Source of the DNA: Candidatus Brocadia sp.
GTDB lineage: Bacteria > Planctomycetota > Brocadiia > Brocadiales > Brocadiaceae
Direction: 5' to 3'
Length of the DNA: 32,000 nucleotides
Assembly: GCA_021650915.1 (NCBI GenBank)
Contig: CP091279.1
Coordinates: 1,440,001 to 1,472,000 of the forward strand
The notes beneath the pieces are model-generated. The model saw only the letters and a list, made by a program, of their open reading frames with translations, made no database searches and was not told the DNA's origin. The position numbers and the translations under genes are program-made. Below are positions 2-28,512 of the stretch, one piece after another; position 1 is the stretch's first letter, and each line of letters starts with the position of its first letter.

Positions 2-1558
2 CTCGACACCCTCGCTGGCGTTGTTCAATTAATCACCGAATTAAGGGACGAAATCGAAAGCAAGGAAAAGAATCTCGATGAAACCCAAGCGCGTGAAGAG
101 AGATTGGAAATTAAGAAGGACATTGATAAACTCAATGAACGGCTGGAATCCCTGAAAACAAATTTTGAGGAGATTGCCACGGGTTTGGATCTGGAGGCAT
201 TTTATCAAAAACCACAAAAACGTTTTGACTGGAAGGAAGAAATCCAGACCCTCGTAGGGCCGATTGTAAATGACTTAAAAAATATGACCGCTCGCCCCCG
301 GTTAATTGAAAATTTGCGGACACAAGTGGCCTACTACGAAAAGCAAATTTCCCTGGTAAAAGAGGCGCTGGAAAACATCCAGACGATTGCTGTCCAGGTC
401 AAAGATGAAGCCTTGAAAAATCAACTCATCGGCCTGAAAAATGACTGGACTAGCAAAGGGAGGCAGATTTCAAGCCAGCTTACCATCGCAAAATATCAAT
501 TGACCGACAAATTGGGCGAAAGAAAGACATTCCTTGAATCGAGTAAAAATATCGTGAGGGTATTTTTCAAGAGCCGGGGGAGAAATTTTGTCTTATCCGT
601 ACTCGCATTCCTGTTTGTATTCTTCTTGCTTCGTTATATTCACCGGCATCTTTACAAAGGGAGCGCCATCCACAGGACGTTGGCAGGCTCATTCTACATC
701 CGTCTTGCAGAAGTGTTGTACCAGGTACTCACCTTTGTTGGCGCCACCGGGGCGCTGCTGATCGTATTGTACGTTTGTGGCGACTGGGTACTTTTGGGTA
801 TAGCGTTCATTTTTATCTTAGGCCTCATCTGGACGGCAAAACAGACCCTTCCCCGTTTCTACGAGCAGGGCACACTCCTCTTAAACCTTGGGCCAGTCAA
901 GGAAAATGAACGGGTAATATACAACGGCCTTCCCTGGAAGGTGGTCTCACTACACTTCTATACGCAGCTGGTGAATCCGGAATTGAAGGGAGGAATGATC
1001 AGGCTTCCCCTGAATGAACTCAAGGATATCAGGTCACGCCCCTATCATCACGATGAACCCTGGTTTCCGTGCAAAGAAAAGGACTGGGTTATCCTTAATG
1101 ACGGAACTATGGGGAACGTGACGATACAGACTCCTGAAATTGTGCAGCTTGCTGTTGCCGGAGGAAGTTTTAAAACGTATCCCACGGCGGTATTTTTAAA
1201 CCAGAACCCCCTCAACCTCTCCAGGAACTTTAGTGTCAGGGTTACTTTTGGCATTGCATACCAACATCAGGCAATTGGTATTACCGAAGTCCCTCAAAAA
1301 CTGAAAGAGGCAGTAAACGCAGGACTTATCAGGGAAGGATATCAGGGTGATCTCATGAATCTGAATGTGGAATTTAAAGAAGCGGCCGATTCATCCCTGG
1401 ACTACCTGATTTTTGCCGAGTTCTCAGGACGAGTCGCAAAAGACTATTATAAACTTTCCCGAATCATTCAAAAGATCGCATTGGAAGCATCCAATACAAA
1501 CGGATGGGAAATTCCTTTCACGACATACACGGTTCATACGGTTCCGTCTCACCAATAG
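2..1558 (+). CDS. MscS-family mechanosensitive-channel-like membrane protein (5' end outside window)
   Basis: The frame is open from base 2 with no stop upstream of the listed TTG at 104. It has a coiled-coil-like N-terminus and hydrophobic TM blocks (FVLSVLAFLFVFFLL, LLIVLYVCGDWVLLGIAFIFILGLIW). A beta-domain-like pattern follows (KDWVILNDGTMGNVTIQTPEIVQL...YPTAVFLNQNPLNLSRN), as in MscS family proteins. Confidence 0.6.
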   Translation, partial: LDTLAGVVQLITELRDEIESKEKNLDETQAREERLEIKKDIDKLNERLESLKTNFEEIATGLDLEAFYQKPQKRFDWKEEIQTLVGPIVNDLKNMTARPRLIENLRTQVAYYEKQISLVKEALENIQTIAVQVKDEALKNQLIGLKNDWTSKGRQISSQLTIAKYQLTDKLGERKTFLESSKNIVRVFFKSRGRNFVLSVLAFLFVFFLLRYIHRHLYKGSAIHRTLAGSFYIRLAEVLYQVLTFVGATGALLIVLYVCGDWVLLGIAFIFILGLIWTAKQTLPRFYEQGTLLLNLGPVKENERVIYNGLPWKVVSLHFYTQLVNPELKGGMIRLPLNELKDIRSRPYHHDEPWFPCKEKDWVILNDGTMGNVTIQTPEIVQLAVAGGSFKTYPTAVFLNQNPLNLSRNFSVRVTFGIAYQHQAIGITEVPQKLKEAVNAGLIREGYQGDLMNLNVEFKEAADSSLDYLIFAEFSGRVAKDYYKLSRIIQKIALEASNTNGWEIPFTTYTVHTVPSHQ

Positions 1559-1626
1559 TCTTCTGAGAACAACGCCATCCGCTTGACGGGATTATAATGG
1601 CCATGAGCAAACGATCCTTTTAGGCA

Positions 1627-2262
1627 TTACGAATGCCCTCTTAAAACGACCCGCGCCGGACTGCCGTCACCGTCCTTTATCTTCAATGGCAACGCGATCA
1701 GTTCGTACTCCCCCGGTTTTACCTCATTCAAATCAAGCCCTTCAATGATAATGATACCCTTGTTCAAAAGTATGTGGTGGACGTCTGCATGCACACGGTC
1801 AAACTTATCGACCGACAGATAATCAATCCCGACCAATTTCACGTTATGCATCGCTAAATATGCGGCAGCCGCCTGGGTCAGATAGACAAAATCCTCGATA
1901 AATGCCGAGTGTTTCCAATAGGTAGAGTTAATCGTCTTAAAAATAACCCGTTCGCACTTTTCTATTTCTAATGATTTTAAATTCTCCGCATCAATTTTTT
2001 CTTTATTCTTTATCTCAAATACCTTCGCATTTCCGATAAGTGTGTCCAGGGGAATGTGGTCAACAGAAATACCGTTTTCCTTAAGGTGATACGGGGCGTC
2101 GATATGGGTGCCACAGTGAGAGCCGAAAGTCAGTTCGGACAGATTACACGGGTCACCGCGGGAAATCAGGCTTGTTTTTCGAATGGAAACCGCAGGGTCA
2201 GCAGGCCATGTAATGAGCGTGTCAGAAATGGTAAGTGTTACGTCGTAGAAAGGCGGTTTCAT
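1627..2262 (-). CDS. Cyclase family protein / kynurenine formamidase-like
   Basis: Carries the HCGTHIDAPYH motif (HxGTHxDxPxH) typical of the cyclase/arylformamidase family. The start is set at the ATG (MKPPFYD) preceded by AAGGGAG, not the longer track ORF. Confidence 0.8.
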   Translation of the reverse strand: MKPPFYDVTLTISDTLITWPADPAVSIRKTSLISRGDPCNLSELTFGSHCGTHIDAPYHLKENGISVDHIPLDTLIGNAKVFEIKNKEKIDAENLKSLEIEKCERVIFKTINSTYWKHSAFIEDFVYLTQAAAAYLAMHNVKLVGIDYLSVDKFDRVHADVHHILLNKGIIIIEGLDLNEVKPGEYELIALPLKIKDGDGSPARVVLRGHS

Positions 2263-2411
2263 GGCTCCCTTTGTGTGTATGCACAATCTTTTTTGTCAGA
2301 GAGATTCTGGCATCACATCACTGTATTAGCGCGGTAGCCCAGCACGAAATACGGGAATCTAAGGCGTTGATTGAATAAGGCATTCGCCATCGTAGATACC
2401 TGTATTGAGAA

Positions 2412-3239
2412 TCATTGAGAGGTCAGGGTTGCGGCAAACCGTAGCATCTCGCTTTTATTCAAATCAGAGGTAAGACAATAGGTGACACCGTCTTCTTCCC
2501 ACAATACGGAATTAAAGCCCCGACGATTTCCTATGTAAAATTCTTTATGCCCTACGCGGGTTCTTTCGAGGTTCGTAATGGGAAAGCCGCCTTTTCGTAC
2601 AACCTGGAGTGACAGCTTATTTCCCCCCTTATCAAAAATTACACACGGACTGCTTGTGCCGTAAACTCTGGCAGGCATCCCTTCTCTCATGCCGATTTGT
2701 TTCGTGCTGAGGAAGGGGGACGAATTGCCCAACCTGGTATTTATTGTATTTCCAAGATATTTATTAATATTATCAACCACAGAAGTTTTTTCATTGAACA
2801 CCAAATTGTCATTTACTGCGACCACATGATTTTTTATTGCGTTGTCAACAATAGTTATGGAATCGGGTTGATAGTAGTTAGTATAATAAAAGATGCCACC
2901 TGTTATGGAAATGAGGATAGAGGCTGCTATAGCATAGGAACGGAAGGAAAGGAACGGGATGGATACCTTCCTTTGATGTCTTCTCTCTTTGCCGGCTTCC
3001 GCCCGGTCGTCTGCTTCGGCAAAATCGATACCCTTGAGAATTCTGTCGTAGAGATATGCAGGGGCTGTTATCTTGACACAACAGGTTTTCACTAAAGACC
3101 GGACATCCATTTCAAATTGGTATCTTCTCTGGCAATCATCACAATCATCAATATGCTCTTTCACAACCAGATAATGAGACTTATCTAATTCTCTATCCAC
3201 GAACTCATGAAAATGTTTCATAGCTTCGGTACACGTCAT
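2412..3239 (-). CDS. Anti-sigma factor, zf-HC2 type, single-pass membrane protein
   Basis: The N-terminus has an H..C..C zinc-finger pattern (HIDDCDDCQRRYQFE) and a central TM segment (YAIAASILISITGGIFYY). Its start overlaps the sigma-factor stop by 1 nt (TAATG). Confidence 0.75.
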   Translation of the reverse strand: MTCTEAMKHFHEFVDRELDKSHYLVVKEHIDDCDDCQRRYQFEMDVRSLVKTCCVKITAPAYLYDRILKGIDFAEADDRAEAGKERRHQRKVSIPFLSFRSYAIAASILISITGGIFYYTNYYQPDSITIVDNAIKNHVVAVNDNLVFNEKTSVVDNINKYLGNTINTRLGNSSPFLSTKQIGMREGMPARVYGTSSPCVIFDKGGNKLSLQVVRKGGFPITNLERTRVGHKEFYIGNRRGFNSVLWEEDGVTYCLTSDLNKSEMLRFAATLTSQ

Positions 3240-3829
3240 TATTTTTCCCTCTTAATAAAACCCCTGTCTTTCGCATATGCCAATAAACTTTTTTGTAGCA
3301 ATCCTCTGCCCCGGTTCAGTCTTGATTTTACCGTGCCAATGGGCACATTTGTAATCTCTGAAATGTCTTTATACGATAATTCTTCTACATCGGAAAGCAA
3401 GATAGCCTCGCGATATTCAATGGGTAAGCTATCCAAGGCACTCTTGACTTCGTCGTCCAGCAAACTGCCCAGGTCATTATACTTCTTCTCTAAGGTATCG
3501 ACAGCCTCACCGGACTTGGTTGCTTCTTCGTTTGGTGCACTTATCTGAATCGACTCAATATCATCGAAAAAAATTTCACCCGGCATACTTGCCGTTTTCC
3601 GGTAATTATTTATAAAGGTATTTCTCAGAATCTTGAAAAGCCATGCCTTTAAGTTGGTTCCTTTTTGAAAGGTGTCGAAAAAACGATATGCTTTTAAATA
3701 CGTTTCCTGAACGAGGTCCTCGGCTTCCTCCTTATTGAATACCATTCTGAGCGCCATATTATAAAGGGAATCGACGTGTGCCATTGCATGCTCTTCGAAT
3801 TCTCTTCTTCTCGTATTGTCATCCCTCAT
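3239..3829 (-). CDS. ECF (sigma-70 group 4) RNA polymerase sigma factor
   Basis: Region 2 ([17 protein letters not shown]) and region 4 ([31 protein letters not shown]) signatures are present. It is translationally coupled to the downstream anti-sigma gene. Confidence 0.9.
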
Positions 3830-4446
3830 TGCTTACATTTCCTTAGAACAATAAATTTTTGAATAAAGTTCCTGCTTTTACTGAAATGGCATTACAGAAT
3901 TCTATCTGCTTAAATTCAAGGGAGCGCGGGATTTGCAAGTAAAAAGCAGATTTGACATACGAGTCAGAAAGAAAAGTCTATGGTGAACAGACGGTAAGGA
4001 CAGGAATTAAGGCTCCACCGCAATGCCGTGTGAAGCTATCTTTTGGACCCGTATTTCACGGTGGTTTACCCAATGATAGTAATAATACATTTCTCTGTTG
4101 AGAAGGTACGTTTACTAACAAAGACGGGTTCCCAAGATATTCTGGTATAGGTCCTTAAAAATAACGCCTCAAACACGTACATGGCAGAGCCTCAGCACTT
4201 ATAAGTATACGTTGGTTATACTAGCAATTAATATAACCCTACGCAAGGAAAAAACCTTCCCTGCCAGGGTAACCATAACCAGAATACCCATGACGCGGGA
4301 AATTCGTCCGGATTGATCTCCGTGATCAGGCGCACCATAGCGGCATCGGTGCGGTTCCTGAAGAGCGCAACCATTGATGATAATACGCCCGCGTGCTGGA
4401 GCCAGTAGTAAGACAAGGCGGATTCATGCCCCCTCAAAACCCACGT

Positions 4447-4811
4447 GAATAAAATAGAAATTCCGTAACACTTTAGTACCAAAGTAGAAACCCACACTCT
4501 CTGAGTGTAGCCAGAGCAAGGTTGTGAAGTAATAGAAGTGAATGTGCAGATAGATCATGTGCATCTGATAGCGATGGTAGTACCCAAGATATCGATATCA
4601 TAATTTGTGGGAACAGTGAAAGGTTGAACAGCGATACGAATATTTAATAAGTGTCAGCATTTAAAGCAGAAGCCGTATTGGAGGGGATCACTTTTGGTCA
4701 AAGGGGTACTGTGTAGATACCGTGGGATTAGATGCAGAAAAGCTGCACAAATACGTGAAATATCAAGAGCAGAAAGAACGTCAAGAAGAACAAAAGAATT
4801 TTAAAAGGTAA
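4447..4811 (+). pseudogene. tnpA: IS200/IS605-type Y1 (HUH) transposase tnpA remnant
   Basis: The translation reads ..KFRNTLVPK*KPTLSECSQSKVVK / IEVNVQIDHVHLIAMVVPKISIS*FVGTVKG*TAIRIFNKCQHLKQKPYW / FWSKGYCVDTVGLDAEKLHKYVKYQEQKE. HUH (HVH) and C-terminal Tyr motifs are recognisable. The frame is broken by at least 4 in-frame stops and 2 frameshifts. Confidence 0.75.
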
Positions 4812-20435: not shown

Positions 20436-22284
20436 GTGTTTGAACGGAAACCCCCCAGAGCCCTGTAAAGTAAGGAGAAGCTGGTGAAAAATGTTCATGA
20501 AAGTCATTGAATTTTTTCGGGTAAAAGGGTAAAATATGGCGAAAATGAAGGGATTCTGGGTATAAAGAGTCCAAATATTCGGTTCATTAACCCACTAGCC
20601 AAAGGACATTCGATAGAAGATGAGAAAGAGATTTGAGCAGCAATTGAAGCTTGGCATCATACCCATTTCAGGGGTAAAACTGCCAATAAAGAGTCGAGAT
20701 GAGCTACCACCGATACTGAGGGCGTTGCAACATATCTATGTTACACCGGAGTTGAACGAGGAGGTATTCCGGATATTAGAGGCGAAGGTAACGAAGGGGA
20801 AGAAAAAGACGGGAAGATATGGGATGGATTTATGGCATATTTTGGTGTTGTCGGTGGTAAGATTAGGGTTAGATGCCGATTATGACAGGTTGGAGGATTT
20901 TGCCAACCATCACAAACTTATCAGGCAGATAATGGGGGTTGAGACGGCATTTGGAGAGGCGAAGGTTTTTTCGATGCAGAGCATCAAGGACAATATAAGA
21001 TTGTTGGATGAGGAGACCCTCAGGCAGATAAATGAAGTGGTGATATCATCGGGGCATCAGTTGGTTAAAAAAAAGGACGAAGGACTGTGTATTAAGGTGG
21101 ATACGTATGTGTTAGAGACGAATGTACACTTTCCGACCGATATGAATTTATTGTGGGATGCGGGACGCAAGAGTCTGGACATGATAGAGGATGCAATAGA
21201 GGAAGGCATCCTGGCGGGGAAAGGATGGCGCAAGAGCAAATATTGGAGGAGAGAGTTAAAAAAGCTGATGAGGATAAGCGCAAAGGCGTCAAGCAGCGGG
21301 GGGAAAAACAAGGAAGAGCATGTGAGGAGTTACTTGGAATTATCGAGGGGTTTGAGTGAAAAGATAGGAGCGAGTCTGTTAGCCATCTACGAAAAGGTGC
21401 TAACGACGAACCAGGTAGACAAGCATGCAGGGAAAATAGGGACACTGGAGTATTTTCACGGGATGTTGAATAAACAGATAGACCTGGTGGAGAGAAGGGT
21501 GATCCGGGATGAGGTAATACCGGCGGCAGAAAAGGTTCATTCGTTGTTTGAGCCGCATACGGAGTGGCTGTACAAAGGCAAGTCAAACAAAAGGGTAGAG
21601 TTGGGACATAATATTCTGGTAGCAAGCGATCAGTGGGGTTTCATCGTGGACCATGTGGTAGGAGAAAAACAGGCGGATGTATCGTTGGTAATTCCATTGG
21701 CAGATAGGTTGTTGAGCCGTTACGGAGAAGGCACAATAAAGAGTATAAGTTTTGATAAAGGTTTTTACAAGAAAGAGAATAAAGAGTTGCTGAGTTTGTA
21801 TATACCAGAGGTAATCCTTCCCAAGAAGGGCAAGAAGAATAAGGCGGAACAGGAAGAGGAATCGGGTAAGACATTTAAGAAGCTAAGGCACAAGCACTCG
21901 GCGGTAGAATCGGATATCAATCGTTTGGAGCATCACGGCTTGGATAGGTGTCCGGACAAAGGGCTGCATGCCTTTAAAAGATATTGTGCAATGGGCGTGT
22001 TAGCTGCGAATTTGCACAAGCTGGGAAACGTGCTGCAGGAGAAGGCACGGAAGCAGTGCGAAAAGTTGCGAAAAGCCGCCTAAGCAAGCAAAAAACACGA
22101 AGAAAAACAGTCTGCCGGGAGGCAGGTACGCCCAGACAAGGCTAAAATAAAGGGGAAAACAAGGGAAATATGTAAAAGAACAGTATTTTTGCCAAAAACC
22201 CTAATCTCAAATCTTAAAATTATCTATTGGTAAATAGAAAATCGACCTCGCACTTTTACAAAAAGTGCGTTTTCGTTCAGACAC
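20436..22284 (+). mobile_element. DDE insertion sequence, copy B (intact)
   Basis: It has the same IRs as copy A and is flanked by the direct repeat TATATA (20430-20435 and 22285-22290). By eye it differs from copy A only at 20453 (C versus T at 8412) and in G-tract length. Confidence 0.9.
20620..22083 (+). CDS. DDE transposase (IS4/IS5-superfamily-like), intact 487 aa
   Basis: An uninterrupted ORF with DDE-type blocks HFPTD, SFDKGF and SAVESDINRLEHHGLDRC. Confidence 0.9.
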   Translation: MRKRFEQQLKLGIIPISGVKLPIKSRDELPPILRALQHIYVTPELNEEVFRILEAKVTKGKKKTGRYGMDLWHILVLSVVRLGLDADYDRLEDFANHHKLIRQIMGVETAFGEAKVFSMQSIKDNIRLLDEETLRQINEVVISSGHQLVKKKDEGLCIKVDTYVLETNVHFPTDMNLLWDAGRKSLDMIEDAIEEGILAGKGWRKSKYWRRELKKLMRISAKASSSGGKNKEEHVRSYLELSRGLSEKIGASLLAIYEKVLTTNQVDKHAGKIGTLEYFHGMLNKQIDLVERRVIRDEVIPAAEKVHSLFEPHTEWLYKGKSNKRVELGHNILVASDQWGFIVDHVVGEKQADVSLVIPLADRLLSRYGEGTIKSISFDKGFYKKENKELLSLYIPEVILPKKGKKNKAEQEEESGKTFKKLRHKHSAVESDINRLEHHGLDRCPDKGLHAFKRYCAMGVLAANLHKLGNVLQEKARKQCEKLRKAA

Positions 22285-23420: not shown

Positions 23421-23636
23421 CTACTCTACCAAATTTTTCTCAACTTCAAGCGTGTAAGATAGGATTGTTTTTAAATCCATCTTTTTAGAGGCGTGAAGGA
23501 TTTCAATCCCTACAATCTTGTCCTCAGAAGTCGTATCTAAATTAACCCCTTCAGATAGTTCTATAACTCCTTCTGGAATCTCATCACCCAGCTTTAGGTA
23601 CAACGCATCTACTTCATCATCATAATATACTTTCAT
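23421..23636 (-). CDS. DUF2283-like protein
   Basis: MKVYYDDEVDALYLKLGDE...VGIEILHASK fits the DUF2283 pattern. Confidence 0.7.
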   Translation of the reverse strand: MKVYYDDEVDALYLKLGDEIPEGVIELSEGVNLDTTSEDKIVGIEILHASKKMDLKTILSYTLEVEKNLVE

Positions 23637-23859
23637 CTTTTTCTTCCTTTCTTCAAAGGATAGTTTGTTATTACTGTTGTTATATCATCATCAACGGAAA
23701 CAGCAATCTTTAATGGGTATTTAAAACCTTCAACATTTTCTATAATTTTTGATTACCTTGAATCAATTCTTTACCTGCCAGAATCTTTCTAACTGTTTCC
23801 TCTGGAATTTTATATAATTCTCCCCTTCTTTTTGCATGGCGAGAGAACTTTATTTCCAA
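23633..23859 (-). pseudogene. DUF4258-like protein, frameshifted
   Basis: A TTG start is followed by LEIKFSRHAKRRGELYKIPEETVRKILAGKELIQGNQKL*. The remainder, (I)IENVEGFKYPLKIAVSVDDDITTVITNYPLKKGRKR*, is in another frame. Its stop overlaps the DUF2283 ATG (ATGA). The length of 227 nt is not a multiple of 3. Confidence 0.6.
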
Positions 23860-23891: not shown

Positions 23892-23949
23892 CAATAACGC
23901 CGCTGTTCAGCGGCGGCGGTACGCCATCCGCTGCAACCGATTGTTAGGC
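23892..23949 (-). other. attC site (attC-C), 58 bp
   Basis: The minus strand reads GCCTAAC-AATCGGTTGCAGCGG-ATGGCGTACCG-CCGCTGAACAGCGGC-GTTATTG. R'' matches RYYYAAC. The arms are imperfectly complementary with unpaired bases. The DJ-1 stop codon TAA lies inside R''. Confidence 0.75.
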
Positions 23950-24633
23950 ACTTCTCTCAAGAGCCTTGAGCAACAATTCAGCGACGGCATCACCCGAAGC
24001 CGGGTTTTGGCCACTAATGAGTCTCCCGTCTTCAACAGCATATGCTGCCCAAGGCTCATCCGCCTTGTGGTAGATGGCTCCGCGATTAACCAACTCGGTC
24101 TCGGTCAAGAAGGGCACATACTTATCAAGCTCGGCTAGTTTCTCCTCTTCGTTTGAGAAGCCTGTGACCTTCTTCCCTTTCACGAGCAGGGTGCCATCGG
24201 ACATCTTTATGTTCAGCAGGCCCGCGGCTCCATGACAAACCGACGACACATAGCCACCGCTTTCATAAATCCTTCGGCTAATGGCCTGGAGTTCCTCGTT
24301 GTCTGGAAAATCCCAAATGACACCATGGCCGCCTGCAAAGTAGATGGCCACATAATCATCTGGCTTGACTTCACTTGGCTTCAACGTGGCGCCAAGCCGA
24401 TTCATAAACTCCTTTGTCTGATACCATGTCCAGTCAGTGTCATCTGCCATAGCAAGGCTATGGGGGTCAATCGGTGTATAGCCGCCTCTGGGACTGACAT
24501 AGTCCACTTGATAGCCAGCCGCTTCGACCTTCTTCACAAAGTGCACAGCCTCTCCTAGTCAGAGACCGGTAGCGCGCTTCAGATTGGGATACTTCTCGAT
24601 GCTGGTCAGAACGACAAGAATCTTCTTTCTCAT
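23944..24633 (-). pseudogene. DJ-1/PfpI-family (class I glutamine amidotransferase-like) protein with premature TGA at codon 25
   Basis: The ATG at 24633 follows GGAGGA. The sequence is MRKKILVVLTSIEKYPNLKRATGL*LGEAVHFVKK..., with TGA at 24561-24559 where a Trp codon (TGG) would fit. Downstream, SSVCHGAAGL contains the nucleophile-elbow Cys. Confidence 0.8.
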
Positions 24634-24669: not shown

Positions 24670-24799
24670 GCCTAACGGTGGGCGTTACCCGCTGGTGGGC
24701 GGGACGAGAGAACGCCTCTTTGCCGGAATCAACTTCAAGCCACACAAACTGCTTGAAAACGCGCAGACTCCCACCAGTCGGGTGCACGCATTGTTAGCC
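24670..24799 (-). other. attC site (attC-D), 130 bp
   Basis: The minus strand reads GGCTAAC-AATGCGTGCACCCGACTGGTGGGAG...CCCACCAGCGGGTAACGCCCACC-GTTAGGC. R' is a perfect GTTRRRY. CTGGTGGG pairs with CCCACCAG. It lies 28 nt after the protease stop and 37 nt before the DJ-1 ATG. Confidence 0.75.
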
Positions 24800-24826
24800 G
24801 CCGTTATTGCGATTCATGCTGCGCAT

Positions 24827-25234
24827 TTATACCCAATGCCAACTTTGTGAATCAAAGCCCAGTTCAACTGCCGCTTGTATGGTCTCTAAGCCGATTATCG
24901 CAGGGCTATTGCCAGAGGGATGAAAGATAATTTTTGTTGTTGGTAAAGGCTTACCTTCAAACTTGAATCCGACGTTAGGATATAAATCCATCGTAGTTGT
25001 CGAACCATCCGCCAACATAACACTTTGCTTAATGCTAGTGGATGGAGATAATTTTATTGCCGTTGCTATTGCCTGAGGAAATTGAGTAAATACTGCCCCG
25101 GTGTCAACTACTGCCCAAATTGTGGTAGCAACAATCCCTGTAGGTCCAATTACTTCTACGGTTGCATAGGCTTGCTTGAATTGCCCTGTCTGACCCACAT
25201 AGTATCTACTGGATGGATAAGTAATCTTTTTCAT
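24827..25234 (-). CDS. Retropepsin-like (clan AA) aspartyl protease, single domain
   Basis: WAVVDTGAVFTQFP (DTG active-site motif) and the C-terminal AIIGLETIQAA block. Confidence 0.7.
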   Translation of the reverse strand: MKKITYPSSRYYVGQTGQFKQAYATVEVIGPTGIVATTIWAVVDTGAVFTQFPQAIATAIKLSPSTSIKQSVMLADGSTTTMDLYPNVGFKFEGKPLPTTKIIFHPSGNSPAIIGLETIQAAVELGFDSQSWHWV

Positions 25235-25443
25235 TCTCGCACCCTCACATCAAATGTCACAAATGCAAATGTAAGCCTTGAAATGTCAAGTCTGCGTTCT
25301 CTAATCGCTGCCATTAAATCGTCAAGTGATCTTCTGGAATCCACAAAACCTTCTGGATTAACTACTATCCATGAATTATTGAATTCACGCAATTCATTCC
25401 AATGAGTAGACAACCAATCCGAACCACTAAATACTTGAGCCAT
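25231..25443 (-). CDS. Small DUF5678-like protein
   Basis: A 70-aa ORF overlapping the protease start (ATGA). The pattern NELREFNNSWIVVNPEGFVDSRRSLDDLMAAIRE resembles DUF5678 proteins that often precede retropepsin-like genes. Assignment is from memory. Confidence 0.45.
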   Translation of the reverse strand: MAQVFSGSDWLSTHWNELREFNNSWIVVNPEGFVDSRRSLDDLMAAIRERRLDISRLTFAFVTFDVRVRE

Positions 25444-25449
25444 AAGTCA

Positions 25450-25917
25450 TCACTCCTTTTTAGATGTATCAGGTGGCTGAATAGTCCAGCCTGGTGGAAG
25501 ATTTTCAGCCGAGTTCACTGGTATAGCGGGTGCTTGCGGCGCTGGCTGATTTGCAATAGGCTGATATTTCAAGGTGATTTTGTTCGAGTGTGTTTCTTTT
25601 GAGGATCCTCCCAATTCTACAGCATAAACTTGAGGTATTTCACTTTTTGATTTCAGATCAGTTTGCGATTCGGCTTCAAAGGCAACCTCTATGGTACACT
25701 CTTGAAACTGCATGGTTTTCTCATGAGTGCTTTTATGGACTTCGGCTATCTGTCTCGATACCTCAATCAAAAGATCTTTTAAGATAGCAACACGTCGTGG
25801 TGCGGGTAACTTCGCACGATTAATTAGATAACCGACATAGTAACCAACTATTCCCGCTATCATAGTGCCAAGAGCAAAAGCACAAGTAAGAAGAGAAATC
25901 AACACTGATGTTTCCAT
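25450..25917 (-). CDS. Membrane-anchored protein with trypco2-like (trypsin co-occurring domain 2) C-terminal region
   Basis: An N-terminal TM helix (VLISLLTCAFALGTMIAGIVGYYVGYL) is followed by MQFQECTIEVAFEAESQ...VYAVELGGSSKETHSNKITLKYQP. This resembles the trypco2 pattern F.V..VELEF.V......G.....THR.KL.L.P. The start is uncertain (25917 or 25923; AGGAGA lies upstream). Confidence 0.45.
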   Translation of the reverse strand: METSVLISLLTCAFALGTMIAGIVGYYVGYLINRAKLPAPRRVAILKDLLIEVSRQIAEVHKSTHEKTMQFQECTIEVAFEAESQTDLKSKSEIPQVYAVELGGSSKETHSNKITLKYQPIANQPAPQAPAIPVNSAENLPPGWTIQPPDTSKKE

Positions 25918-25953
25918 TTCCATTCTCCTAAAATTCAAGATAGTTAACCAGGC

Positions 25954-26029
25954 GGCTAACATGAATTATCCGTACGAACAGCCGCATTGTTTTACGGCTG
26001 TTCGTACATATAATACGTCTACTGTTAAC
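25954..26029 (-). other. attC-like site (attC-F) bordering the intI remnant
   Basis: The minus strand reads AGTTAAC-(16 nt)-GTACGAACAGCCG-TAAAACAATG-CGGCTGTTCGTAC-(11 nt)-GTTAGCC. The stem is a perfect 13 bp, the spacers are partly complementary, and AACAATGCGG is shared with attC-D. Confidence 0.5.
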
Positions 26030-26146: not shown

Positions 26147-26306
26147 ATACCCAAACCTAAATTATTAGATCAGATGCGTGATGCAATCCGGGTAAAGCAC
26201 TACAGCATGAGAACAGAAGAGGCGTATGTTCATTGGATTAAAGAAACACTCTTACAAAAATCGGTAAAAGCGGCGATCCGTGCCGCAGGGATCAATAAAC
26301 CTGCAA
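26147..26306 (+). pseudogene. intI: Integron-integrase (IntI) remnant 2: start codon lost, internal deletion, 3' truncation
   Basis: (ATA)PKPKLLDQMRDAIRVKHYSMRTEEAYVHWIKE is joined directly to TLLQKSVKAAIRAAGINKPAS, which resembles the IntI region just before the HxLRHSFATHLL box. ATA stands where remnant 1 has ATG. It ends where the convergent ABC gene stops. Confidence 0.65.
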
Positions 26307-26309
26307 GTT

Positions 26310-28319
26310 TTATGACCACTTTGGGTGCTGAGGCGCCTCGTTCAAGTCGATAGCGGGTTCTTGAATTATGGTGTCCCCTGCTTTTTCTATTCCTGCTTCA
26401 GCCTCTTCGAATTTCATCTTTTCCTGGGTATTGAACTGCATCTCGAAGAGTTTTTTGTAAAGCCCTCCATGGGCAAGCAGTTCGTGATGAAGTCCCGTTT
26501 CAACGATCCGCCCCTTCTCCAGCACCATGATCAGATCGGCATGGAGTATGGTTGACAGCCGGTGCGCAATAACGAACGTGGTCCGGTCTTTTATCAGGCG
26601 GTAGATGGCGTTTTGAATAAGTTGCTCGGTCTCCGTATCAACCGATGCTGTGGCCTCGTCCAGGATAAGGATTCTGGGGTTGGCAAGGATGGCACGGGCA
26701 ATGGCGATGCGTTGTTTCTGTCCGCCGGAGAGCTTTACCCCGCGTTCACCAATCAGGGAATCATATTGCTTTGGCAGCTCGCAGATAAAGTCATGCGCAT
26801 TGGCGGCGCGGGCAGCCTCTTCAATTTCGTTGCCCGCCGCATCAGACCGGGCATAGGCGATGTTTGCCTTTATGGTGTCATTAAACAAAAAAGGCTCCTG
26901 GAGCACCATGGCCATTTGCCTGCGCAGGGAGTGGAGTCTGACGTCCTTTATGTTATATCCATCAATGAAAATCCCTCCTTTGGTGGGGTCATAAAATCGG
27001 GGGATGAGTTTTGTCAGGGTGGTCTTGCCACTGCCGCTGGGACCTACAAACGCAATCATCTGGCCCGGACGCGCAGTGAGGTTGATGTCTGACAGGACTT
27101 CGGTGTCCTGATTATAGGCGAAGTGGACGTGCCTGAATTCTACCATACCCCGCACAGGTGGCAAATCAATGGCATAGGGAGCATCTTTTAAATCGCACGG
27201 CGTATCCAGTATCTCAAAGATGCGCTCGGTGGATGCGATGGCGCGCTGCACCTGGTTGTAAAAACGGGTCAGTCCGGTAATCGGACTGTACATCATCTGG
27301 AGATAGGGAAAGAATATGACAAACGTCCCTGCGGAGAGCTGTCCCTGGAGTACTTTATATCCGCCCAGGCAGATGACAACGACCGCGCCCGTTTCGGTTA
27401 TCAGGTCCACGATGGGCCTTAATGCAGAAACAAGTTTTAATATCCGAACGTAGAGGTGGTAGTTATCATAGTTCTTGCTCCGGAATCGTTCCATCTCCTC
27501 GGCTTCTTTTGCAAATCCCGCAATGACCCGTATTCCCGAGATGTTGTCCTGAATGAGGGAGTTGAGTTCGGCCGTTTTGTCCCTGAGGGAGCGAAAGACC
27601 TTTCGGATCCTTTTGCCAAAATTGTAGGTGCAGAGGGAGATGAAGGGACAAACACCCAGGGCAATGCTGGTGAGTTGCCAGTCAAGTTTTAAGCAAAAAT
27701 AGAGTATCCAGCCAAATTTAAACATATCCGTTATGAAACTCATCACCGGTCCCACAATTGCCTGCTCCAGGGAATTCACGTCATTCATGAGACGGCTCAT
27801 GATATCGCCGGTCTTGGTATTTTCAAAATATTGCAAGGGGAATCGCTGGATATGGCCGTAGAGATGATTCCGCATATCGTAAATGAGCCTTTGGCCGAGC
27901 TCTGAAGTAAGGAATCCATGGACCAGCGTAAGTCCGCTGTGAAAGACGTGCATAACGATGAAGCTTACGGCGAGAAAGACGAGGGTAACGATGGTGTCAT
28001 GATACCCTGCAAACCAGTGCTTATGAACATAGTGGGATGCCCGGAGCAGGGGTTTTGCCAGCGGGATGGGATTCTTTGGTACGTGAGGGCTGGTTTTGCC
28101 GGATGCTTTTTCCTCAGATGAAGCGTTGTGCGGTGTTTTGATAAAGGTGTCGGCTATCCTTATTTCATCCACGGCAATGCCCAGTATTTGGGTTGGCAAC
28201 ACAGCAATGTAAGCGCTGACGGCCGAAAGGATGAGGATAATTACCGATTTATGCCAGTACGGCTGCAGATAACCGAGGAGTCTGACATAGGTGTTTCTTA
28301 AAGAAGCGTCATTTTTCAT
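26310..28319 (-). CDS. ABC exporter, fused permease/ATPase (MsbA/ABCB-like)
   Basis: Walker A GPSGSGKTT, signature LSGGQKQRIAIARA, Walker B ILILDEATS and an N-terminal six-TM-type domain. The start is set at MKNDASL (28319). Confidence 0.9.
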   Translation of the reverse strand: MKNDASLRNTYVRLLGYLQPYWHKSVIILILSAVSAYIAVLPTQILGIAVDEIRIADTFIKTPHNASSEEKASGKTSPHVPKNPIPLAKPLLRASHYVHKHWFAGYHDTIVTLVFLAVSFIVMHVFHSGLTLVHGFLTSELGQRLIYDMRNHLYGHIQRFPLQYFENTKTGDIMSRLMNDVNSLEQAIVGPVMSFITDMFKFGWILYFCLKLDWQLTSIALGVCPFISLCTYNFGKRIRKVFRSLRDKTAELNSLIQDNISGIRVIAGFAKEAEEMERFRSKNYDNYHLYVRILKLVSALRPIVDLITETGAVVVICLGGYKVLQGQLSAGTFVIFFPYLQMMYSPITGLTRFYNQVQRAIASTERIFEILDTPCDLKDAPYAIDLPPVRGMVEFRHVHFAYNQDTEVLSDINLTARPGQMIAFVGPSGSGKTTLTKLIPRFYDPTKGGIFIDGYNIKDVRLHSLRRQMAMVLQEPFLFNDTIKANIAYARSDAAGNEIEEAARAANAHDFICELPKQYDSLIGERGVKLSGGQKQRIAIARAILANPRILILDEATASVDTETEQLIQNAIYRLIKDRTTFVIAHRLSTILHADLIMVLEKGRIVETGLHHELLAHGGLYKKLFEMQFNTQEKMKFEEAEAGIEKAGDTIIQEPAIDLNEAPQHPKWS

Positions 28320-28512
28320 GGTACAGCACAACCGCAACCAAGTCCCCACCCCTTACAAATGGCAAACAATCTCCCTGGATACCACTGTGCCAACAGGGAT
28401 TTGTTCGGCAGGTAGCTTAACTGAGTGACATTCGGCTGCATTGCTGAATCAATGAGCCAGGGAGAACATCCTGAAAGGGGAAAGGGCGGGAGATGGTGTA
28501 GTTCACTCCTTT

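Follow-up and report, generated by a model that had tools for sequence, protein, structure and literature searches.

We analysed a 32,000-nucleotide (nt) stretch of a Candidatus Brocadia sp. genome (contig CP091279.1, positions 1,440,001 to 1,472,000 of the forward strand), hereafter the window, in which three tightly packed minus-strand genes form one mobile integron cassette of 1.3 kb. The genes encode a divergent Trypco2/Pepco protein (gene 1), a small protein (gene 2) and a retropepsin-like aspartic protease (gene 3). We lean towards the view that this cassette encodes a complete membrane toxin module gated by its own protease, as a variation on the Pepco-protease effector pairs known from bacterial immunity. 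The sequences directly show the homology of genes 1 and 3, the three-gene synteny in other genomes, the mobility of the cassette and the conserved architecture of the gene 1 tail. The features of the cassette are as follows.

25450 to 25917, minus strand: gene 1, 155 amino acids (aa), divergent Trypco2/Pepco protein
25231 to 25443, minus strand: gene 2, 70-aa small protein, weakly DUF5678-like
24827 to 25234, minus strand: gene 3, 135-aa retropepsin-like (clan AA) aspartic protease
25924 to 25929, minus strand: ribosome-binding site AGGAGA, 6 nt ahead of the conserved ATG of gene 1
25951 to 25960, minus strand: cassette 5′ junction GTTAGCCGCC (R′ core); the first base of the cassette is T 25959
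24670 to 24799, minus strand: attC of the cassette, 130 nt, located by a pattern-and-fold scan
24793 to 24799 and 24670 to 24676, minus strand: attC core boxes R″ (GGCTAAC) and R′ (GTTAGGC); the last base of the cassette is G 24676

The three genes form a single integron cassette

An earlier note on this DNA, made from the sequence alone, had described the trio as a single cassette without an internal attC, and both the layout of the open reading frames (ORFs) and an alignment of the cassette boundaries bore this out. The ORF coordinates and the sequence reproduced the spacing given there, with 6 nt separating gene 1 from gene 2 and an ATGA shared by genes 2 and 3, and the intergenic space within the trio is nowhere long enough to hold an attC. 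For the boundaries, the window was aligned with three trio-bearing contigs (loci L001, L005 and L007), of which L005 and L007 are two samplings of one Anaerolinea locus. On the 5′ side, DNA similarity between the trio-bearing contigs starts exactly at GTTAGCCGC, and the junction GTTAGCCGCC is invariant in the four aligned loci. This 5′ end is the exact complement of the R″ region of the cassette’s own attC, GGCGGCTAAC, which has the look of an R′ core split by recombination between G and TT and thus delimits the cassette as 24676-25959. On the 3′ side, CGGCGGCTAACA is invariant across the aligned contigs. The R″ region is kept in both L001 and L007; L001 retains the full attC, up to CCGTTAGGC, and the attC is collapsed in L005/L007. 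Because similarity starts and stops at the cores in two unrelated contigs carrying the trio, we conclude that the trio is one mobile integron cassette with a single attC, about 1.1 kb of which is coding. This attC folds as single-stranded DNA in a computed fold. A strict attC scan returned no site, and a relaxed scan returned only the cassette’s own attC.

In the Anaerolinea metagenome-assembled genome (MAG), the attC of the trio cassette (L007, positions 4440-4460) is reduced to GGCTAACAAAACGCTAGCC, followed by a terminator-like hairpin, and this copy is a lone, fixed cassette outside any array.

The longest ORF of gene 1 in the window’s ORF list (25450 to 25962) corresponds to 170 aa. This start was rejected, since its ATG spans the recombination junction and has no counterpart in the other loci. 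The start that is conserved lies at the second ATG (25917), and the resulting protein has 155 aa; the homologs have 153-157 aa. The minus strand upstream of gene 1 reads TCATGTTAGCCGCC, and its AGGAGA site is aligned and kept in L001, L005 and L007.

The earlier note had placed an attC on either side of the trio. The downstream site stood, and the upstream site (“attC-D”) is better read as an attI-side junction by the remnant of an integrase gene. Two features lie beyond the junction.

26168 to 26308, plus strand: intI remnant of ~47 codons, with an internal deletion and a truncation
25972 to 26007: 13-bp perfect inverted repeat (GTACGAACAGCCG, 10-nt loop, CGGCTGTTCGTAC) in the presumed attI region

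The intI remnant sits ~200 nt beyond the cassette junction. Its translation runs DQMRDAIRVKHYSMRTEEAYVHWIKE..SVKAAIRAAGINKPAS, and it aligns to VchIntIA (2a3v) only at residues 7-33 and 239-265; no functional intI was found beside the cassette, only this remnant. Because the upstream site adjoins it, the junction is probably the attI side rather than another attC, and the trio would be the first cassette of a decayed integron. The palindrome at 25972-26007 was considered as an upstream attC and rejected, because conservation between loci begins at GTTAGCC and not at the palindrome. This inverted repeat, located between the intI remnant and the cassette junction, occurs once in the window and is not conserved in other loci.

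Gene 1 is assigned to the Trypco2/Pepco proteins

Gene 1 matches Pfam Trypco2 (PF19631) over profile positions 3-78 of 78 with 21.1 bits and an E-value of 3.8e-4, the curated cut-off being 24.2 bits; all six members of the close family match along the full length of the profile, each below the cut-off. The alignment of the gene 1 family was searched exhaustively as a profile against 1.84 billion representative proteins, and 22 proteins were retrieved at E<=1e-3, including the family’s own cluster representative. The other 21 all match Pfam Trypco2 (best E-value 1.2e-13), and one of them also matches Pfam Pepco. Since every profile-found protein outside its own cluster matches Trypco2, we assign gene 1, on sequence grounds, to this family as a divergent member that carries an extra hydrophobic helix at its N-terminus. 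Identity to the distant Trypco2 relatives is 23-34%, and the motifs MQFxECExExAxE and SN[TK]I.[IVL]K[FY] are common to both in the alignment. A tblastn search of gene 1 against plasmids gave no match. The protein can be divided into the following parts.

Residues ~4-32: N-terminal membrane helix
Residues 41-68: helix, predicted by AlphaFold2 with low confidence
Residues ~69-118: amphipathic beta core
Residue I121: conserved
Residues 122-155: Pro-rich tail

The earlier note had called gene 1 a membrane protein resembling Trypco2; the relationship held for all 21 profile matches, and the helix did not hold as a general feature of the clade, being present also in the relatives P0017, P0018 and P0033 and lacking in most others. 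Within the core, a strand alternates between acidic and hydrophobic residues (E73 C74 T75 I76 E77 V78 A79 F80 E81), and this pattern is kept through the clade. The segment NKITLKYxPI is invariant in the gene 1 family, after which conservation collapses into the variable tail. At position +3 past the last strand, I or L is found in 29 of 31 clade members (I in 16, L in 13). The tails of these 31 members are 18-53 aa long (median 29 aa), and that of the window protein contains 24% Pro and 14% charged residues. A Q-[AV]-[PVSTM] motif occurs 5-16 residues into the tail in 14 of the 31, and in the close family the tail motif P127-Q128-A129 is invariant. The membrane helix is directly followed by NRAKLPAPRR, which under the positive-inside rule would place the Trypco2 domain and the tail in the cytoplasm, where the protease, having no signal sequence, would also be located.

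Trypco1 and Trypco2 were named as neighbours of trypsin-like peptidases (Kaur et al. 2020, eLife, PMC7159879) and were renamed Pepco by Evans et al. 2025 (bioRxiv 10.1101/2025.11.14.688446), who described Pepco as a beta-barrel pore toxin whose full-length form is non-toxic. Before activation, SsPepco is already assembled as a 9-10-mer beta-barrel, whose lumen is charged and which has an amphipathic helix at its base. It becomes toxic when the adjacent protease cuts after a conserved Ile and so removes a C-terminal tail of ~2 kDa that is unstructured, charged and rich in Pro (10.1101/2025.11.14.688446). With Trypco2/Pepco now described as a protease-activated pore-forming effector (10.1101/2025.11.14.688446), gene 1 is more likely the killing component, and we have revised its earlier designation as a membrane adaptor to that of an effector.

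Gene 3 encodes a predicted retropepsin-like protease

The retropepsin-like character of gene 3 proposed in the earlier note was upheld. Gene 3 scores 28.0 bits against Pfam Asp_protease_2 (PF13650), above the curated cut-off of 24.3 bits, and also matches Pfam gag-asp_proteas; its homologs carry precomputed matches to PF13650 and PF13975. A profile search of solved structures gave nothing significant. Its active-site motifs are as follows.

Residues around D44: catalytic VDTGA
Residues I114-G115-L116: psi-psi-Gly

D44, T45, G46, A47, I114, G115 and L116 are invariant among six close homologs. In the wider clade, for which 11 proteases were aligned, no substitutions occur at D44, G46 or A47, and conservation at T45 and G115 is at least 90%: D-T-G-A is intact in all but L027 (DPG), and the psi-psi-Gly glycine is present in all but L036. 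The protease thus looks catalytically competent from its sequence, and its 135-aa single-domain size suggests that it would work as a homodimer, the only active state of such enzymes. Against NCBIfam TIGR03698 (clan_AA_DTGF) it scores 24.8 bits, so far under the cut-off of 57.35 that gene 3 is not placed in that subfamily. The gene 3 motif is DTGA-V/D, and a clade-specific motif, GF...W.W, lies at the C-terminus. NCBIfam gave no useful match for the trio proteins.

A small gene is coupled to the protease gene

Gene 2 had been described as DUF5678-like. The window protein itself has no Pfam match at E<=10. Among its relatives, DUF5678 (PF18929) matches 2 of the 6 close homologs (E 0.023) and 3 of 13 clade members (best E 9.7e-4), and is the sole family matched by more than one clade member. 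We regard gene 2 as weakly DUF5678-like. Its AlphaFold2 model has a pLDDT (predicted local distance difference test) of 79 and the order alpha-beta-beta-alpha-beta; a profile search of solved structures found nothing significant. The close family comprises six members, and a protein identical to gene 2 is held under an NCBI record that names a Candidatus Brocadia sp. MAG. A homologous small gene also lies between the Trypco2 and protease genes in the distant loci, and it overlaps the start codon of the protease gene in the window and in 11 of 14 other loci in which both genes were read.

In L015, L018, L029, L033 and L037, the last two residues of the small protein are a hydrophobic residue and Gln. 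The Trypco2 tails encoded in these loci contain a hydrophobic-Q-A-[P/V] motif, and many tails finish in [KR]-Q. These Gln-ending small proteins and tail motifs might reflect protease recognition or product mimicry.

The trio recurs in other genomes

The close family is very small, comprising 5-6 clusters in a set of 5.8 billion proteins. All close relatives with enough flanking DNA have the trio in identical order (L001/L002 and L004-L007, and L003 up to the contig end). Next to distant Trypco2 relatives we found a gene for 61-80 aa and then an Asp_protease_2-type gene for 127-135 aa (234 aa in L018). These loci came from three kinds of search.

Protein look-ups: trio at P0017 (L008-10), P0033 (L012-14), P0021 (L015/16) and P0024 (L038)
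P0019 locus: trio judged by gene sizes only
Metagenome scan: trio in L017, L018, L022, L029-34 and L033
L020 (metagenome scan): contig ends just past the start of the small gene
Viral-contig scans: trio in L036 and L037

In the loci from the metagenome scan, local hidden Markov models built from the first examples recognised the small proteins with E 1e-7 to 1e-23 and the proteases with E 1e-13 to 1e-32. The order differs in L027/28, where the small gene comes first, followed by the protease and Trypco2 genes. The earlier note would have been refuted by a lack of Trypco2 or retropepsin similarity or of co-occurrence elsewhere, and neither applied: an aspartic protease gene, and with it the trio, was counted in 17 of the 19 distinct loci that were informative. 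One of the two exceptions is the L023-26 group, taken up below. P0035 (L040/41), the weakest profile match examined, is the second. In L040 (positions 1-2642) and L041, the P0035 Trypco2 gene lies behind a gene for a protein of at least 648 aa, cut by the contig end, with an 80-aa protein encoded between them. We read the large protein as a TPR-plus-CHAT cysteine protease in the canonical arrangement, and its position beside P0035 ties the clade to the known protease-Pepco logic.

A scan of species-representative genomes with the protease alignment returned one locus only, in the Anaerolinea MAG. The same cassette is carried by the window’s Candidatus Brocadia genome and by the Anaerolinea MAG, which we take to belong to different phyla (Planctomycetota and Chloroflexota, respectively). 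Several copies lie in mobile or defence-type settings: the toxin-antitoxin-rich array of the window, the interval in L036 that has a P4-type integrase with SRAP on one side and a patatin gene on the other, the integrase cargo of L037 and the neighbourhood of a type I restriction R subunit in L027. These contexts count towards the preferred reading of a protease-gated toxin.

The same survey bears on a different explanation, namely that the trio is a non-lethal membrane or housekeeping module in which a small membrane-associated protein is matured by a dedicated protease and carriage on a cassette is incidental. The L017, L007 and P0019 loci, which lie among ordinary metabolic or regulatory genes, would fit such a module, as would the missing matches in defence databases. 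Its distribution speaks against this, being patchy and rare (5-6 close homologs in the whole protein set), as do the presence of one cassette in both Candidatus Brocadia and Anaerolinea, the carriage on integron cassettes and integrase elements, and the homology of gene 1 to a demonstrated toxin family. We consider a housekeeping role very unlikely.

Two of the loci show further features. On the IMG/VR contig L037 (positions 578-3265), a tyrosine integrase gene flanks the trio on one side and a duplicate of that gene’s 3′ end on the other; the trio seems to be all that this very small integrative element carries. In L027 (positions 2080-3288) and L028, the variant-order trio is directly upstream of the type I restriction R-subunit gene. 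In addition, a 495-aa protein without a Pfam match is encoded in L008 (3492-4979) and L009 (1763-3250), ending 22 nt before the P0017 Trypco2 gene; the P0017 subclade may thereby have a fourth component, possibly a sensor.

Proposed mechanism and competing explanations

From these observations and the analogy with SsPepco, we infer cleavage, toxicity, a role for gene 2 and a biological trigger as follows. Gene 1 would form a latent oligomeric beta-barrel at the inner membrane, anchored by its extra N-terminal helix. A gene 3 homodimer would cut off the Pro-rich C-terminal tail, either following the I/L residue I121 or at the PQA motif of residues 127-129, both of them conserved, and removal of the tail would turn gene 1 into an active pore whose membrane damage stops or kills the cell. 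Gene 2, translationally coupled to the protease, would take the place of a fused sensor by holding the protease inactive or coupling it to a trigger; this regulatory role is conjecture. Loss, titration or displacement of gene 2, upon phage infection or loss of the cassette, would release the protease, and the outcome would be an abortive-infection-type defence, stabilisation of the cassette, or both. An addiction or defence role, as suggested in the earlier note, is plausible.

A cleavage of opposite consequence would make the protease an antidote, constantly degrading or trimming Pepco (or gene 2), so that toxicity would follow inhibition of the protease, for example by a phage protease inhibitor. 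The synteny data are compatible with this arrangement, and the protease has no sensor domain. Guard-type logic of this kind is known from other defence systems. It nevertheless appears improbable, given that the conserved tail architecture fits a removable inhibitory tail and that in the one characterised Pepco system cleavage activates, the full-length Pepco being non-toxic (10.1101/2025.11.14.688446).

The proposed role of gene 2 also admits a toxin-antitoxin-like addiction module, with the effector mechanism as in the protease-gated scheme and a different trigger and biological role. Gene 2 would then be a labile antitoxin directly inhibiting the protease or Pepco, and its decay after cassette loss or stress would free the protease to activate Pepco and kill the cell, and so stabilise the cassette or the array. 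The array does hold MazF/PemK-DUF2281, DUF4160-DUF2442 and DUF4258-DUF2283 modules, translation of the small gene is coupled to that of the protease gene, no sensor domain was detected in any trio protein, and the trio occurs as the sole cargo of small integrative elements. Yet the trio proteins match no known antitoxin or toxin family, gene 2 gave no detectable DNA-binding motif and shows no sign of autoregulation, and the copies that adjoin restriction or patatin genes fit defence equally well. Addiction as the main function is an unlikely alternative, if a somewhat likelier one than the antidote or housekeeping explanations.

Several results weigh against the protease-gated toxin that we prefer. 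The direct Trypco2 score of gene 1 lies under the curated cut-off, as in all five close homologs, and the AlphaFold2 monomer of gene 1, computed from a six-sequence alignment, has a pLDDT of 41, which makes it unusable for a barrel fold. The conserved I at the start of the tail is replaced by L in 13 of the 31 clade members. A fold search of the PDB with the gene 2 model gave nothing meaningful. No protease is found near the Trypco2 group of L023-26, where a neighbouring gene is read as an HNH-type endonuclease. Most trio contexts are not defence islands, L017 and L007 lying among housekeeping genes. Lastly, PADLOC-DB 2.0 has no family at E<=1 for any trio protein, and PHROGs has no match for any of them.

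Relation to known systems

The closest relatives in the literature are the Pepco-protease effector modules, such as SsPepco with SsAvs4. Shared with them are a gene 1 homologous to Trypco2, a protease encoded alongside and mobile or defence-type settings; I121 of gene 1 may correspond to Ile97 of SsPepco. The trio differs in several respects. The protease domain of SsAvs4 is trypsin-like, whereas that of the trio is a stand-alone retropepsin-like aspartic protease of ~130 aa without a fused STAND, FGE or other sensor. The trio adds a small gene between effector and protease (in another order in L027/28), the window subfamily has the extra N-terminal transmembrane helix, and the trio is carried on an integron cassette.

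Other known systems share individual features. Stand-alone retropepsins of bacteria and archaea (PF13650; TIGR03698; RimB of RimABK, PMC11957791) resemble gene 3 in single-domain size, D-T-G-A, psi-psi-Gly and an expected homodimeric site, but the partners of gene 3 are unrelated to RimA/RimK. Bacterial gasdermin-protease pairs likewise combine a latent pore-former with a neighbouring protease that removes an inhibitory C-terminal segment, a likeness that extends to the trio by analogy; gene 1 has no sequence relationship to gasdermins, would be a much smaller effector and is paired with another protease class. The toxin-antitoxin cassettes of sedentary chromosomal integrons are also multi-gene cassettes with one attC in arrays that hold toxin-antitoxin pairs, and the trio cassette recurs in another array (L001). 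In contrast to them, the trio has three genes, none of a known toxin-antitoxin family, and the adjacent intI is decayed.

The earlier note knew of no described system with this architecture, and we found none in PADLOC or in the searchable literature, where searches with Trypco2, Pepco, DUF5678 and retropepsin together with defence or toxin-antitoxin returned no description of a Trypco2/Pepco-retropepsin pairing. Neither PMC7159879 nor 10.1101/2025.11.14.688446 mentions aspartic proteases or retropepsins. The new elements are best described as a protease of the aspartic class where known modules have a serine or cysteine enzyme, the lack of a sensor fused to it, a third, small protein that is obligatory, and carriage on an integron cassette.

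Protease-activated death effectors have recently been proposed as a dominant logic of bacterial immunity, only with serine or cysteine proteases fused to large sensors. As a broader proposition, which we put forward tentatively and hold somewhat short of probable, retropepsin-like proteases may be a third, unrecognised protease class that gates Pepco pore-formers in prokaryotic conflict systems, in a sensor-less three-gene module whose ~70-aa DUF5678-like protein controls the protease, possibly as a product-like or dimer-interface mimic, and which spreads by integron cassettes and small integrase elements. If so, a Pepco clade paired with a very small, stand-alone protease of the aspartic type would extend this logic to a third catalytic class, and the three-gene, 1.3-kb cassette would offer a small system for studies of Pepco activation. 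Orphan retropepsin-like proteases of bacteria and small DUF5678-like proteins would also gain a suggested function, and integron cassettes would be able to carry a complete multi-gene cell-death module between bacteria as distantly related as Candidatus Brocadia and the Anaerolinea MAG.

The surrounding array

Downstream of the trio, the array comprises MazF/PemK-DUF2281, DUF4160-DUF2442 and DUF2283 modules, a DJ-1/PfpI gene and an insertion sequence (IS) transposase. In a spot check of other attC sites by their R″ boxes, R″-type boxes were found to come after the cassette stop codons in the array. On the other side, an ABC-transporter gene (26310-28349, minus strand) abuts the intI remnant; with intI decayed and this gene abutting it, the integron’s own integrase would no longer be able to serve the array.

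The cassette next to the trio (23944-24633, minus strand) carries a DJ-1/PfpI-family gene with a single in-frame TGA at codon 25 (24559-24561), where the family presumably has Trp (TGLWLGE); this gene is probably a recent pseudogene. It is followed by a short ORF that stops early and looks like the start of a DUF4258-type toxin (23740-23859, minus strand), next to an intact DUF2283 gene (23421-23636, minus strand), and the pair may be a decaying toxin-antitoxin cassette. Within the cassette array, a DDE_Tnp_1 transposase gene (20620-22083) lies on the opposite, plus strand, which points to an IS element inserted into the array.

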